A DNA stretch of 20,000 nucleotides, taken from contig NC_057718.1 in the NCBI RefSeq assembly GCF_004010195.1, positions 100,394,612 to 100,414,611 of the forward strand, given 5' to 3'. Under the pieces are notes generated by a model. That model was not told the origin of the DNA. It saw only the letters and a program-made list of their open reading frames with translations, and searched no databases. Positions 3,111-19,801 of this stretch are shown here, piece after piece. The position numbers were made by a program, and so were the translations under genes. This DNA is from Chiloscyllium plagiosum (taxonomy: Eukaryota). The number at the start of each line of letters is the position of its first letter. Position 1 is the first letter of the stretch.

Positions 3111-3448
3111 AATCATGAGGGGTGTGGATAGCGTAAATAGACAAGGTCTTTTCTCCAGGCTGGAGGAGTCCAGAACTAGAGGGCAGAGGTTCAAGGTGAG
3201 AGGGAAAAAAATTAAAAGGGACCTAAGGGGCAACTTTTTCACGCAAAGCATGATGCATGTATGAAATGAGCTGCCAGAGGAAGTGGTGGAGGCTAGTACA
3301 ATTACAACATTTAAGAGGCATCTGGATGGGTATATGAATAGGAAGGGCCAAGTGCTGGCAAATGGAATTAGATTAATTTAGGACACCTGGTCAGCATGGA
3401 CGAGTTGGATCAAAGGGCCTGTGTCTGTGCTGTATAACTCTGACTATA
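3111..3448 (+). mobile_element. Young HER1-like CR1 LINE, 5'-truncated 3' end, inserted into the older CR1
   Basis: Highly similar to 17098-17453 (atgaggggtgtggatag...gagtccagaactagagg...aatgagctgccagaggaag...catggacgagttgg...tgctgta...tgact). Confidence 0.9.
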
Positions 3449-10171: not shown

Positions 10172-10372
10172 ACCGGTGTTGGACTGGGGTGGACAAGGTC
10201 AGAAGTCACATGACCCCAGGTTATAGTCCAACAGGTTCATTTGAAATCACAAGCTTTTGGAGCGCTGTTCCTTCGGCAGGTGAATGTAATGAAGGAGCAG
10301 CGCTCCGAAAATTTGTGATTTCAAATAAACCTGTTAGACTATAACCTGGTGTCATGTGACTTCTGGCTTTCT
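10172..10372. mobile_element. Palindromic Penelope-like terminal element with two decayed hammerhead motifs
   Basis: Inverted arms 10200-10274 and 10291-10365 (68/75 matching by manual count) with a 16-nt spacer. Homologous to 19712-19801. Confidence 0.8.
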
Positions 10373-10643
10373 CAAAGCCAACCAAGGATAGGAAATGAGT
10401 GTCTCATCAACATTCTTTTGGGGAAAACGTCTGTTATTTTTACAAATGGCAAGATTGCATTTTTACAACACAAGGACGTGTTTCTATACAAACAGCGCCA
10501 TCCCTTCATGATGTTAGACAACGTGGAAAACAGATTTGCTGAACCTTTATCAGTTTACAAAATACTGTTTAAATCCTACAGACCAGGGACATGTTTTGGG
10601 ACTAAATGTGCTGGACAATCTCTGTGGAACTGGAAGCAAATGG

Positions 10644-11243: not shown

Positions 11244-11273
11244 AACCAATGTGTTAAAGTACTCAAAGACTTT

Positions 11274-11566
11274 TGGAGGAGTCCAAAACTAGAGGGTATA
11301 GGTTTCAGGAGAGAGGGAAGAGATATAAATGGGACTGAAGTGGCATTTTTTTCATACAGAGAGTGGTGTGTATAAGGAATGAGCTGCCAGAGGAAGTGGT
11401 TGAGGCTGGTACAATGACAACATTTAAGAGGCATCTGGATGTGTACATGAATAGGAAGCATTTAGAGGAATAGGCAAATGGGATTGGATTAATTTTGGAT
11501 ACCTGGTTAACATGGATGAGTTAGACCGAAGGGTCTGTTTCCGTGCTGTGTGAATCTATGACTGTG
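11274..11566 (+). mobile_element. HER1-like CR1 LINE 3' end
   Basis: Aligns with 17148-17453 and 3163-3448. Confidence 0.9.
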
Positions 11567-12277: not shown

Positions 12278-12600
12278 TTAGATTATATTAGATTAGATTA
12301 CTTACAGTGTGGAAACAGGCCCTTCGGCCCAACAAGTCCACACCGCCCCGCCGAAGCGCAACCCACCCATACCCCTACATTTACCCCTTACCTAACACTA
12401 CGGGCAATTTAGCATGTCCAATTCACCTGACCTGCACATCTTTGGACTGTGGGAGGAAATCGGAGCACCCGGAGGAAACCCACGCAGACATGGGGAGAAC
12501 GTGCAAACTCCACACAGTCAGTCACCTGAGGCGGGAATTGAACCCGGCTCTCTGGCGCTGTGAGGCAGCAGTCCTAACCACTGTGCCACCATGCCGCCCA
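12278..12600 (-). mobile_element. HE1-type SINE, full length, young
   Basis: tRNA-like head with B box (rc GGGTTCAATTCC), conserved core and (TTAGA)n tail. Close match to the copies at 15740 and 18983. Confidence 0.95.
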
Positions 12601-12830: not shown

Positions 12831-13002
12831 TTATCTCGTTTCTCCTTATATACACCCATGCTATTCACCTCAGCAACTTCCTGTGCTATTGGTGTTCTGC
12901 TGATTTTTGTGCTGCCATGGAATCCTGAACCACAATTTCAAACGGGCTGCCTTTTGTCACATCTCCTAGTCACCAGTTTTGTATTTCGACACCACTTCCC
13001 TT

Positions 13003-13600
13003 TACATTAGATTAGATTCCCTACAGTGTGGAAACAGACCCTTCAGCCCAACCAGTCCATACTGACCCTCCGAAGAGTAACCCACCCAGACCCACTTCCC
13101 TCTAACAAAGAGGTGGCACGGTGGCTCAGTGGATAGCACTGCTGCCTCACAGCCTCGAGCAACTGGCTGTGTGCACATTCTCCCTGTGTCTGTGCGGGTT
13201 TTCTCCGGGTGCTCTGGTTTCCTCCCACAATCCAAAGATGTGCAGATCAGGTGAATTGACCATGCTAAATTGTCCACAGTGTTAGGTGCATTAGTCAGAG
13301 GTAAATGGGTCACTCTTCGGAGGGCTAGTGTGGACCGGTTGGGTCAAAGGGCCTGTTTCCACACTGTAGGGAATCTAATCTAATCTAATACACCTAATGC
13401 TACGGGCAATTTAGCATGGCCAATTCACCTGGCCTGCACATCCTTGGACTGTGGAAGGAAACCGGAGCACCCGGAGGAAACCCACGCAGACCTGGGGAGA
13501 ATGTGCAAACTCCACACAGACAGTCACCCAAGGCTGGAATCAAACCTAGGACCTTGGTGCTGTGAGGCAGCAGTGCTAACCACTGAGCCACCGTGCCACC
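13003..13600 (-). mobile_element. HE1-type SINE split into 13003-13106 and 13389-13600 by a nested opposite-strand HE1
   Basis: The tail part (ttagattagattccctacagtgtggaaacag...ccctctaac) and the head part (acacctaatgctacgggcaatttagc...gagccaccgtgccacc) join into one colinear copy. Confidence 0.9.
13110..13388 (+). mobile_element. HE1-type SINE nested in inverted orientation (B-box region deleted)
   Basis: ggtggcacggtggctcagtgg...ggcctgtttccacactgtagggaatctaatctaatctaat. Confidence 0.9.
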
Positions 13601-13719
13601 TCTCTGAAGCTACTGGCCTTTGTTGCTGTAGCTGTCCACAGTTGGGCTCATTTCAGAGCAACTGGAGTTCTTGTCCGTCAGAAAATTTTTCAAAAAGACA
13701 CACAAATTTGAAGCAACAC

Positions 13720-13990: not shown

Positions 13991-14729
13991 CCTTGAAATA
14001 GTCACTTCTGGGCAGAATGGTGAAGAGAAAATGTTTGGAATCATTTAAGAAACAGTAGCATATTAAGTTAGAGGACAAAATAATGTTAGAAAAGAACAAG
14101 GTAGATGTGCCAATTCTTTTTTTCTGCTGTACTTACCACCGTAGACAACATCAGAAATGAAAATGTAAATGCATTTACTGCCTTTAAGGAGATGTGATAT
14201 TAACAGTGCAGAGGTATGTACATTGAATAATTAACAACAGGATATTTATTAAGTTTACACTCTCCTTCCTCTTTGTATTAGTTCATCTTGCCTTCAGCTC
14301 ACACCCTAGAAATTGGTTTTTATTTTAATAATTGATCTCAGAGACACTGTGAATTTCTCCTGCTCTGCCACGTTGGCACTGTAAATAGAAATGCATTTTT
14401 TAAATTGGCAGTTTCAGGAAGGGTGTATCTGTCAGCAGTGGTTGTGGTGAAGGCAACACTCAGCGCTGATAACATTTATTTATAATCCATCCGGCTGGAG
14501 AAGGAAAATGATACTCCCATTTGTGCCCAGTTGCCACGTTCTCTGGAGCATCTTGAAGATCTGCGCACGTTCGGTTCCTTTTCGGAAGATATTGACTGCT
14601 GAAGTCAAAGATGGATACAGAGCAAATTGAGGCCACTTATTCCCTATGCAATCCCCAACTTTTTGACAGGGCCATCCAATTGGTCACATCTACCCTGCAA
14701 GGTTTGCTTCCTGAAGTCACCTTTCGAAA

Positions 14730-15375: not shown

Positions 15376-15479
15376 ACTTTCTGTCCTTGCTCTTCTCTTT
15401 CTTCAGACTCTGTAAGCTGTGCTCTCTCAAGCTGTCCATCTCTCCTTAGGGACACCTTCCTGTCTCGATAGAAACCCGG

Positions 15480-16085
15480 CTCACCCTGGTAGAGGATGGA
15501 GATTGGCCACCAATTTAAGATGACCAGCAAGTAAACCCAAGATGACATGGTGGAATAGCTTTTCAGCGCAGTGAGTGTTCGAGGATCAGAAACGGGCGGC
15601 CAGAGAGTGGAGTGGAGACAGATTCAATCGTGTGTTTTTCAAACATGAGGCCGAATATTAGCTCCCGAAGAGAAAACAGATAGAGGGATTCCAGGAAAGG
15701 GCTGGCAGTGGGATGAGTCTGAAAGAGAACCACAGGGGCTAGATTAGATTACTTACAGTGTGGAAACAGGCCCTTTGGCCCAACAAGTCCACACGCCCCG
15801 TCAAAGCGCAACCCACCCAGACCCATTCCCCTACACCTAACACTTTGGGCAATTTAGCATGGCCAATTCACCGGACCTGCACATCTTTGGACTGTGGGAG
15901 TAAACCGGAGCACCCTGGAGGAAACCCACGCAGACACGGGGAGAATGTGCAAACCCCACACAGTCAGTCGCCTGAGGCAGGAACTGAACCCGGGTCTCTG
16001 GCGCTGTGAGGCAGCAGTGCTAACCACTGTGCCACAGTGCCGCCCAATGGGTGATGGGTCCAGCAGCCTGGTTCTGCTGCAAATA
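15480..16085 (+). mobile_element. Old CR1 3' remnant interrupted by the HE1 at 15740-16046
   Basis: ccctggtagagg...caccaatttaag...gtggagacagattcaatcg...ggaaagggctggcagtggga, with tail-like gatgggtccagcagcctggttctgctg resuming after the SINE. Confidence 0.55.
15740..16046 (-). mobile_element. HE1-type SINE, full length
   Basis: Head, core and (TAGAT)n tail as in the other copies. Confidence 0.95.
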
Positions 16086-16214: not shown

Positions 16215-16495
16215 TTTTCTTATATTTTTCCTGGGATGTGGTGGAAAAATCAATATCTGTTGCCCATCCCTAATTGACCTTGAACTGAGTGGCTTACCAG
16301 ACCAGTTCAGAGTTAAGACTTGGCCAGTTTGCCCATGGGTCTAGATTAAGCAAGCACAGCAGATTTCCTTCCGCTGTGAACCGGATATGGGTAATCAGCA
16401 CTGTGACTGGCATTGGATTCATTTATCGAATTTAAATTCTATCTGCTCCCATGGTGGGATTTGAACACGCAGTCCCAGAGTATTAGTCTGGGATT
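16215..16495 (-). mobile_element. tRNA-derived SINE (third type) sharing its 3' tail with the LINE at 4983-5540
   Basis: B box rc gtgttcaaatcccaccatgg at 16449-16468. Tail gggatgtgg...ttgcccatccctaattgaccttga is the reverse complement of the motif at 19468-19520. Confidence 0.65.
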
Positions 16496-17453
16496 TGGAT
16501 GTGAGCATAAGAGGTACAGTTAGTAAGTTTGCAGATGACACCAAAATTGGAGGTGTAGTGGACAGCAAAGAAGTTTACCACAGATTACAAAGGGATCTTA
16601 ATCAGGTGGGCCAATGGGCTGAGGAGTGGCAGATGGAGTTTAATTTAGATAAATGCAAGGTGTTGTACTTTGAGAAAGCAAATCTTAGCAGGACTTATAC
16701 ACTGGTATAGAATGATAAGGTCTACGGAGTGTTGCTGAACAAAGAGACCTTGGAGTGCAGGTTCATAGCTCCTTGAAAGTGGAGTCACAGGTAGATAGGT
16801 TAGGGAAGAAGGCGTTTGGTATGCTTTCCTTTATTGGTCAGAGTATTGAGTACAGGAGTTGGGAGGTCATGTTACAGCTGTATAGGACATTGATTAAGCC
16901 AGTTTTGGAATATTGTGTACAATTCTGGTCTCCTTCCTATCGAAAGGCTGTTGTGAAACTTGGAAGGGTTCAGAAAAGATTGACAAGGATGCTGCCAGGT
17001 TTGGAGGATTTGAGCCAAAGGGAGAGGTTGAATAAGCTGGGGCTGTTTACCCTGGAGCATTGGAGGCTGAGGGGTGACCTTATAGAGGTTTACAAAGTTA
17101 TGAGGGGCATGGATAGGACAAATAGACAAGTCATTTCCCTGGGGTGAGGGAGTCCAGAACTAGAGAGCATAGGTTTAGGGTGAGAGGGGAAAGATATAAA
17201 AGAGACCTAAGGGGCAACATTTTCACACAGAGGGTGGTATGTGTATGAAATGAGCTGCCAGAGGAAATGATGGAGGCTAGTATAATTGCAACATTTAAAA
17301 GGCATCTAGATTGGTGTATGAATAGGAAAGGTTTGGAGGGATATGGGCTGGGTGCTGGCAGGTGGGACTAGATTGGGTTGGGATATCTGGTCGGCATGGA
17401 CGAGTTGGAGTGAAGGGTCTGTTTCCATGCTGTACATCTCCATGACTCTATGA
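16492..17453 (+). mobile_element. HER1-like CR1 LINE, ~960-bp 5'-truncated copy (frameshifted RT C-terminus plus 3' UTR)
   Basis: ORFs 16495-16710 (SKFADDTKIGG...WQMEFNLDKCKV) and 16755-17147 (LYRTLIKPVLEYCVQFWSP...RLRGDLIEVYKVMRG). Its tail gaagggtctgtttccatgctgta resembles the HE1 3' end aagggcctgtttccacactgta. Confidence 0.95.
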
Positions 17454-17806
17454 TATCACCACCTCCCCCTCTTGATTAGCAAGTTAATGTCTTCAGGAAT
17501 GATCAGCCAGGGTGGATGGGAATTAGCTGGGGTAGATGGACAAGTGAACGTTGGAGAGTTATGGTAGCAGTGGTGAGGACATGGGGATGTGGAGAAGATG
17601 CAAGGTTTGTGTGTAAAGAAATGTACAATTGTATAGGGGCTGGGAGGTACATGGAGGGTAATGCATGTCTTAGATTAGATTACTTACAGTGTGGAAACAA
17701 GTCCACACCAACCCGCCAAAGCGCAACCCACCCAGACCCATTCCCCTACATTTACCCCTTCACCTAACTCTATGGGCAATTTAGCATGGCCAATTCACCT
17801 AACCTG

Positions 17807-17979
17807 GATTAGTGGTGCTGGAAGAGCACAGCAGGTCAGGCAGCATCCGAGGAGCAGCGAAATCGACGTTTCGGGCAAAAGCCCTTCATCAGGAATAAAT
17901 GCAGTGAGCCTGAAGTGTGGAGAGATAAGCTAGAGGAGGGTGGGGGTGGGGAGAAAGTAGCATAAGCAAATGTGGCTGA
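17807..17979 (-). mobile_element. Penelope-like element terminal fragment with a 17-bp target-site duplication
   Basis: ccaattcacctaacctg is duplicated at 17790-17806 and 17980-17996. The insert contains a hammerhead motif and is homologous to 18618-18682. Confidence 0.8.
17860..17897 (-). ncRNA. Minimal type I hammerhead ribozyme motif (PLE-type)
   Basis: Minus strand reads auuc-CUGAUGA-A-GGGC-UUUU-GCCC-GAA-ACGU-C-gauu: intact catalytic core, 4-bp stem II, palindromic ACGU stem III and GUC cleavage triplet. Stem I is weak. Confidence 0.75.
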
Positions 17980-18180
17980 CCAATTCACCTAACCTGCACA
18001 TTTTTGGACTGTGGGAGGAAACCGGAGCACCCGGAGGAAACCCACGCAGAATGTACTAACTCCACACAGAGAGTCGCCTGAGGCAGGAATTGAACCCGGG
18101 TCTCTGGCGCAGTGAGGCAGCAGTGCTAACCACTGAGCCACCACGCCGCCCACTAAAACTTTGTCCATAAAACTTTGTAT

Positions 18181-18595: not shown

Positions 18596-18617
18596 TGGAG
18601 GTTGAGGAGAAAGTGAG

Positions 18618-18682
18618 GGCTGGAGATCAGAGTCGGAGAGGGCGGTGCTGGAAAAGCACAGCCGGTCAGGCAGCATCCGAGG
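18618..18682 (-). mobile_element. Short Penelope-like terminal fragment, truncated before the hammerhead
   Basis: ggtgctggaaaagcacagccggtcaggcagcatccgagg is nearly identical to 17814-17852. Confidence 0.75.
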
Positions 18683-18982
18683 TTGAGATGGGATTAAGAC
18701 TGGTAGGGATGGAGCTGGAGACGGTGATAGTGTGTAGGGAGTAGCGGGGTTTGCTTTAGAGGCTAGCTGCGTGTTTAGGTGAGATGTTCCTGAGGACATT
18801 TGTTCCAGTTAATATTGGTATCGAAAAATGTTGGCGTTCAAAGTGTAATTGGGGTGTAGGAGCAGCTGTTATGGGAGAGGAGAGGTATTTGTGGGCTAGG
18901 TGAGGGATGAACATGAACGAGGCAAATGAGGTTGATTTTTTTGTGGGGTGCACTTGCAGAGGGCATGTGTATAAGTGGATTG

Positions 18983-19292
18983 TTACATTACTTACAGTGT
19001 GGAAACAGGCCCTTCGGCCCAACAAGTCCACACCGACCCGCCGAAGTGCAACCCACCCAGACCCATTCCCTTACATTTACCCCTTCACTGGACACTACGG
19101 GCAATTTAGCATGGCCAATTCACCTAACCTGCATCTTTTTCGACTGTGGGAGGAAACCGGAGCACACAGAGGGAACTCACGCAGACAAGGGGAGAATGTG
19201 CAAACTCTACACAGTCAGTCGCCTGAGGCGGGAATTGAACCCGGGTCTCTGGCACTGTGAGGCAGCAGTGCTAACCACTGTGCCACCATGCC
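18983..19292 (-). mobile_element. HE1-type SINE, full length
   Basis: Close match to 12290-12595. Confidence 0.95.
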
Positions 19293-19429
19293 AGCCAATT
19301 GTTGTGTATTCGGTAACAGGAAACTTGGATAGATGTATATGTCCTGGGATTTTGTAATGTCTGGGGGATGGGGGTGGGGGGGTAAATCAATGTGTAAAGA
19401 CCCCCCCCCCCACTCCCCCCATTCTGAGT

Positions 19430-19548: not shown

Positions 19549-19711
19549 GGGGAGATGTGTGGTAGCTGGGGACACCAGATTATGTCATGGAGAGTATGAA
19601 TGAACGTGAGCATGTGACTGGGATAAAGTGAGCGACAGAGTGATGGGTGTGTCTGGGGCGGGAGAGACGTATGATGGGCAAGATGATTGATTGCCCTTCA
19701 ACCATGATGAG

Positions 19712-19801
19712 GTTAAAAATCACACAACACCAGGTTATAGTCCAACAGGTTTAATTGGAAACTCACGAGCTTTCGGAGCGTCGCTCCTTCATCCACCTGA
19801 T
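19712..19801 (-). mobile_element. Penelope-like terminal fragment (same family as 10172-10372) with a broken hammerhead core
   Basis: ccaggttatagtccaacaggtt is identical to 10216-10237. Minus strand reads GAUGA-A-GGAGC-GAC-GCUCC-GAA-AGCU-C-gug. Confidence 0.8.

Follow-up and report, generated by a model that had tools for sequence, protein, structure and literature searches.

Does the hammerhead-shaped motif on the minus strand of this 20,000-nucleotide stretch of Chiloscyllium plagiosum DNA (hereafter the window) represent a genuine ribozyme fold, to what kind of element does it belong, and would this particular copy be able to cut? The window is repeat-rich, vertebrate-type DNA with several copies of one SINE and 3' pieces of LINEs. 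As laid out below, the motif is very probably the minimal type I hammerhead of a pLTR from a family of Penelope-like retrotransposons, and the copy itself a dead-on-arrival, 5'-truncated insert.

The minus-strand letters from 17897 to 17860 were those given in a preliminary description of this locus, and all conserved core bases were intact. The motif occupies 17861..17896 (minus strand), as delimited by sequence, descriptor scan and shuffles. Read along the minus strand, it consists of the 5' strand of helix I (17896-17893), the core CUGAUGA (17892-17886, with C3 at 17892), an extra A after the core (17885), helix II with its loop (17884-17873), the GAA (17872-17870), the palindromic helix III ACGU (17869-17866), C17 (17865) and the 3' strand of helix I (from 17864, G1.1). 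Helix II is formed by pairing of 17884-17881 with 17876-17873, giving four G-C pairs closed by a UUUU loop, and the order of the conserved bases is that of type I. Sequence and descriptor scan place the predicted cleavage site (17864..17865, minus strand) after GUC, between C17 at 17865 and G1.1 at 17864, in agreement with the earlier numbering. Helix I begins with contiguous C-G and U-A pairs, followed by a U.U mismatch and then one A-U pair. The "2-3 pairs" credited to this helix before were thus slightly generous: two contiguous pairs exist, a third contiguous one does not.

How far such a motif exceeds chance depends on the pattern used. A loose pattern (core, gap, GAAAC) matched once in the window and at least once in 71 of 200 shuffles, which is not significant. 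Our own strict descriptor, defined by the exact core, helix II of at least 4 bp, a palindromic helix III and NUH, also matched once in the window, against 20 matches in 3000 dinucleotide shuffles, only 2 of which had a helix I of at least 2 bp. The corresponding rates are 0.0067 matches per shuffled window and 0.0007 with the helix I requirement. The same scan revealed no second intact hammerhead core in the window. An Rfam search, proposed earlier as a check with the hammerhead models, returned 11 matches up to E=5, none of them a hammerhead and all low-scoring microRNA or snoRNA hits; the Rfam hammerhead models expect longer helices. The hammerhead-shaped motif at 17861-17896 is therefore real, beyond chance. 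A fortuitous resemblance within a repeat of another kind could appeal to the empty Rfam result, the insignificant loose pattern, the weak helix I and the lack of a linked ORF, but it is at odds with the shuffle rates, with variants that avoid the constrained positions (among the rows listed) and with the presence of the same architecture, decayed, at the 5' edge of a second repeat family of the window that is unrelated to the first. We regard it as extremely improbable and largely refuted.

That second family was seen at two places. At 10185-10380 it forms a head-to-head palindrome with 90-nt arms of 86% identity, and a decayed minimal hammerhead stands at the beginning of each arm; the one at 10286-10314 differs from the core at two positions. 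A solo copy lies at 19700-19800 (minus strand), with two core mismatches at 19795-19767.

The motif resides in a 173-bp insert (17807..17979, minus strand), which boundary alignment, depth and loose ends identify as the truncated end of a high-copy retroelement. On both sides the alignment showed an exact 17-bp target-site duplication, with the left copy at 17790..17806 and the right copy at 17980..17996. The insert splits a host SINE copy (17670..18153, minus strand; repeat comparison and alignment), which we take to be HE1, a shark SINE. Uninterrupted copies of this SINE are found at about 12288-12600, 15739-16047 and 18978-19298, and in such copies the 17-bp word occurs a single time. The family-like part of the insert is 17804-17964, with loose ends at 17804 and 17964, and its first three bases also belong to the target duplication (microhomology). 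Behind the hammerhead lies a 3' tail (17807..17863, minus strand) that contig depth and loose ends show to be common to the whole family; it extends 57 nt past the predicted cut. On the hammerhead strand, about 70 nt of family sequence precede helix I, and this upstream part (17897..17964, minus strand) is present in a minority of family records, as judged from depth ratios. The 15 bases at the 5' junction (17965..17979, minus strand) have no match in the family and no clear one in the SINE, according to depth and the loose end at 17964, and represent either filler or a diverged duplication. No tandem array was found in the window, where only one intact core exists.

Several further features of these repeats were observed. 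A second stub of the family's tail lies at 18607-18679, with 39 nt at 95% to the insert; it breaks off below the hammerhead and is flanked by its own 8-bp direct repeat (18599-18606 and 18680-18687). Within the tail of the insert, 17845-17818 (minus strand) contains a branch-point-like word, a pyrimidine run and a CAG ending at 17818, and so resembles a 3' splice site when compared with the consensus; Penelope elements retain introns. No spliced joint at this site was present among the joints listed for the family contigs and reads. A cluster of direct and inverted SINE copies at 13002-13606 could, if transcribed, yield long double-stranded RNA.

A coding partner was then looked for. Neither the window nor the protein searches yielded a reverse transcriptase or GIY-YIG frame linked to the hammerhead family. 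A weak RVT_1 match at 16465-16707 (E 1.5e-05, below the cut-off) lies 1.1 kb from the motif and was read as a separate LINE rather than as part of the hammerhead element. It falls within a decayed LINE 3' part at 16465-17450, presumably CR1, with further copies of its 3' end near 3146-3440 and 11259-11556. For a 42-aa frame across the hammerhead motif, the protein search gave no longer protein. The frame at 18759-18962 (minus strand) was considered as a piece of the element's ORF and rejected, as HMMER over 1.84 billion proteins returned 0 matches and the 8-bp direct repeat shows that the neighbouring stub stops at 18679. In a host-gene search, the non-repeat open-frame stretches at 14483-14683 and 15402-15563 (minus strand), which are possible exons, had no homologue.

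Exact-word scans for other copies gave 0 and 4 viral loci, 5 metagenome loci and 3 loci in prokaryote genomes, and none in plasmids. All 12 loci were dismissed as chance: of these, 11 either align over no more than 18-24 nt or fail to align, and the remaining one aligns over 35 nt. In three Algoriphagus genomes the likeness to the tail (24-35 nt) lies within a 305-aa bacterial ORF (L010 4001-4035; also L011 and L012), and was read as a coincidence rather than a family copy.

The family itself was surveyed in four of 24 public sequence runs, namely the contig sets X1 and X3 (the latter under a different organism label), the RNA reads of X21, and X22, by comparison with 17782-17990 at 80% likeness; in X22 no reads matched. 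Matching contigs numbered 62,465 of 25,783,717 in X1 and 74,233 of 22,532,117 in X3; these are contigs, not copy numbers. Alignment depth was restricted to 17804-17964, which confirms the limits of the insert. Within this range, depth dropped sharply above 17896, by 7.1-fold in X1, 3.1-fold in X3 and 8.0-fold in X21 (bins 17887-93 versus 17901-07). At the same place, 17895-17896, loose ends formed a pile comprising 1447 of the 7682 partly aligned contigs in X1 and 1810 of 10,683 in X3, where some contigs were uncounted. Hence the family 5' ends accumulate 4 nt before the hammerhead core, at helix I position 2.4, which lies 32 nt upstream of the cut site. Had cleavage set the template's 5' end, a pile would be expected at 17864; none was present among the loose ends listed, beyond which there were 542 further rows. 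The insert at 17807-17979 extends above 17896 and is thus not among the short family copies.

At the other side, 3' ends vary across the family, with loose ends at 17804, 17811, 17812 and 17816, and other copies continue beyond the 3' end of the insert. Head-to-head (opposite-strand) joints between 17857 and 17896 occurred in 38 contigs of X1 and 44 of X3. Inverted 5' copies, optional tails and target duplications are described for Penelope-like elements in two reports (bioRxiv 10.1101/2021.04.23.441226, PMC3846280), and the head-to-head joints and variable 3' ends match such inverted copies and optional tails. The anatomy given there for endonuclease-positive Penelope-like insertions, i.e. 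5' truncation, inverted 5' copies, an optional 3' tail and a target-site duplication, was found here throughout.

The fall in depth and the pile of ends at 17895-17896 would also suit a different origin, in which the family is a self-standing, non-autonomous mini-element of about 90-130 nt, SINE- or retrozyme-like, that is transcribed from a start of its own at helix I and depends on the Penelope enzyme for mobilisation in trans, the present copy being a longer read-through. An initiator-like word, YYANWYY, covers 17892..17898 (minus strand) with its A at 17896, exactly at the 5'-end pile; it came from a word scan and was noticed post hoc. YYANWYY is an initiator consensus (PMC5287107), and the Drosophila Penelope element has an internal TATA-less promoter (PMC2377424). 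The window contains the word at 0.013 per position, though, and the hammerhead strand has 5 of them within about 190 nt. A few head-to-tail joints from 17896 to 17804 (4 contigs in X1, 11 in X3) also speak for a mini-element. In bioRxiv 10.64898/2026.07.22.740005, animal retrozymes are reported as derivatives of pLTRs, and pLTR-derived non-LTR retrozymes are reported in one chondrichthyan genome. As here, the non-LTR retrozymes of animals (10.64898/2026.07.22.740005; PMC7229834) combine a type I hammerhead with a short non-coding, pLTR-related unit and commonly occur as solo monomers. They are, however, defined by at least two tandem hammerhead units (10.64898/2026.07.22.740005), whereas the present insert is solitary, flanked by a target-site duplication and outside any array, and head-to-tail joints elsewhere are rare. 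Moreover, this and some other copies continue upstream of 17896, those in X3 even past 17964, and the pile may partly mark a point of subfamily divergence (loose-end agreement 0.33-0.47). We therefore consider an independent mini-element rather unlikely and retain truncated pieces of a Penelope-like element as the preferred origin.

Were the hammerhead bases maintained in the family? Variants listed at 4% or above were counted from the X1 rows with CpG-type sites kept apart; counts refer to the rows listed, beyond which there are 42 further rows, including 8 of the 38 places of X1. Non-CpG variants affected 0 of 20 constrained positions and 11 of 55 free positions (p=0.024, among the rows listed). 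When 17858 and 17859 were left out, 9 of 53 free positions were affected (p=0.046), and at a 9% cut-off the result was p=0.069, both again among the rows listed. Within the motif, the listed non-CpG variants fell in N7 and loop 2 only, and outside helix I also at 17858-17860; the N7 variant made up 13% in X1, 7% in X3 and 35-37% in X21. A6, A9, A13, A14 and A15.1 were without a variant of at least 4% in X1 and X3, where every T>x change was listed (hand count). CpG-type changes of 10-15% were seen at C17, both palindrome bases, C11.1 and G12. Neither 17895 nor 17862 had a variant among the rows listed, and the U.U mismatch of helix I accordingly seems to be a trait of the family and not damage to this copy. 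One further A>T row in each run could reflect a minority with a 3-bp helix I. It should also be pointed out that seeding may favour family records with an intact motif. Among the rows listed, the common non-CpG variants spare the core and stems, and therefore the parent elements held the motif under selection. This bears out, modestly and among the rows listed, the earlier expectation that the core is preferentially conserved among family copies, which we read as selection on the parent elements followed by neutral decay in the copies.

The closest known structures are the minimal hammerheads in the pLTRs of metazoan Penelope-like elements defined by Cervera and De la Pena 2014 (PMC4209133). 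The published core (CUGANGA ... GAAA NN U H) is found in the window motif, and so are the extra base between positions 9 and 10.1, the G10.1-C11.1 pair, a helix II of 3-7 bp with a loop of 3-10 nt, and a palindromic 15.1-16.1 lacking a helix III loop, the last represented by ACGU at 17869-17866. Common to both are a U-rich 5' flank, mostly solitary dispersed copies and some opposite-strand pairs, as well as a large family with a conserved core, here among the variant rows listed. In Fig. S3 of PMC4209133, the rows for Nematostella(2) and Acropora (Neptune) show a near-identical layout with a 4-bp helix II and CGUC. One difference remains: the published descriptor asks for a helix I of at least three contiguous pairs, whereas the window motif has 2 bp followed by the U.U, apparently family-wide. 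Because PMC4209133 lists 2-bp variants as hammerheads of Penelope-like elements (6 of 56 Fig. S3 rows, each with two G-C pairs, by eye), we file the motif with these variants, outside the strict descriptor. Cartilaginous fish account for 0 of the same 56 rows (by eye). In the literature within our scope, which excluded most subscription papers and repeat databases, no description of shark Penelope hammerheads was found. The Penelope label of the family would follow from hammerhead architecture and published precedent. The Penelope-type reading offered earlier is supported by the architecture, the insert with its target-site duplication and the spared core; no reverse transcriptase or GIY-YIG frame could be linked.

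Whether this copy would cut was addressed by folding and by RNA reads. The energies cover secondary structure only, without tertiary contacts or magnesium. The 38-mer monomer folds into a hairpin of -11.4 kcal/mol in which palindrome and C17 are paired to the core at a probability of 0.99, while the pair probability of helix I in the folded monomer is 0.03. A double hammerhead of two strands reaches -13.3 kcal/mol versus -22.8 kcal/mol for two monomers, and with the tail -35.5 versus -45.0 kcal/mol.

In X21, 2913 of 12,955,460 reads match the family, on both strands. Depth at 17865 was 1034 for the presumed sense strand (if the library is stranded as usual) versus 751 for the other, and the strand ratio stayed flat across the predicted cut site (1.22-1.32). 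At a threshold of a fifth of the depth, no pile of read starts or ends was seen in X21 at the cut site or elsewhere, a test blind to cleavage below a fifth of molecules. The X21 data come from a single poly(A) single-cell sample and 2% of its run, and 15 of the 2913 reads match at 99% or more, so most stem from other copies.

These data bear on the idea that the copy actively cleaves itself when embedded in host transcripts, either unaided or by forming trans pairs with one of the many other copies. The intact core bases, a palindrome that permits a 4-bp intermolecular helix III and the transcription of the family are in its favour. Yet even for two strands the active form comes out about 9.5 kcal/mol less favourable (secondary structure only), reads of X21 do not pile up at the cut site, the window contains no second intact core, and no host gene was found at 14483-14683 or 15402-15563. 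In vitro, published minimal hammerheads showed no cleavage as monomers and little as dimers (PMC4209133), and among frog retrozyme dimers cleavage was reported for 1 of 9, with 8 of 9 inactive (10.64898/2026.07.22.740005). Activity of this copy is accordingly very unlikely. Because the monomer misfolds, helix I has two pairs and about 1,000 sense reads show no end pile, the lone copy is unlikely to cut, and it is probably inert, without self-cleavage, as far as folding models and reads can tell. The earlier wording "potentially catalytic" is weakened for this copy, which is solitary, locked in its core and short of three pairs in helix I.

Another close parallel is PAc, a Poseidon element of the green anole (Frangieh et al. 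2024, PMC11167929). There, reverse transcription starts downstream of the pLTR hammerhead at alternative sites, which produces an optional tail. The PAc hammerhead was cut only with protein; RNA that is still uncut serves as the principal template, and the cut site shows no read ends. The ORF of PAc begins at helix II, and in the insert, too, an AUG stands at the start of helix II, inside the core. In PAc both the ORF and the protein-assisted cleavage have been demonstrated (PMC11167929), whereas the AUG frame here ends after 17 codons. This AUG opens the 17-codon frame at 17889-17836 (minus strand).

Under the preferred reading, RNA of an element with an uncut hammerhead would have been reverse-transcribed from a point some 57 nt downstream of the cut, as the insert anatomy and the anole element suggest. 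The cDNA would have been joined at a staggered cut within the SINE, giving the observed 17-bp duplication, and copying would have ended at the boundary, roughly 100 nt upstream of the cut. The core would still be intact since the parents conserved it, as the variants modestly indicate, and the inserted copy has yet to lose it; CpG-type changes are already present in about one in ten of the family signal, G12 included. Judging from published work, the hammerhead of the parent element would most likely cut only as a tandem-repeat dimer or together with an element protein. The motif thus probably behaves like a pLTR minimal hammerhead, dependent on dimers or protein in the parent and inert alone.

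The position of the 5'-end pile tentatively suggests a further step, which we rate as possible rather than likely. The template RNA would begin at the initiator, with +1 at 17896 (helix I position 2.4), so that the hammerhead would form the 5' end of the RNA and be copied uncut, acting as a protein-gated switch or a binding fold. A similar pile would also come from subfamily divergence upstream of the motif or from stalling of the enzyme at the structure. If the start at 17896 were true, the abundant hammerhead-headed stubs would be run-off copies of a short RNA, the hammerhead would be conserved across subfamilies although a 2-bp helix I nearly forbids protein-free cleavage, and a search with the published 3-bp descriptor would miss such a family.

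On its own the copy matters little, as publications on fish, frog and coelacanth already give solitary minimal hammerheads by the thousand for each genome; PMC4209133 counts about 4,000 for coelacanth and 9,000 for Xenopus, of which most are solitary. The family's helix I falls below the published search rule, and shark counts made with that rule would consequently be too low. Finally, the cut site of the hammerhead is not where copies of this family begin; they start at the front edge of the motif, an observation relevant to the role of the hammerhead in Penelope-like elements.
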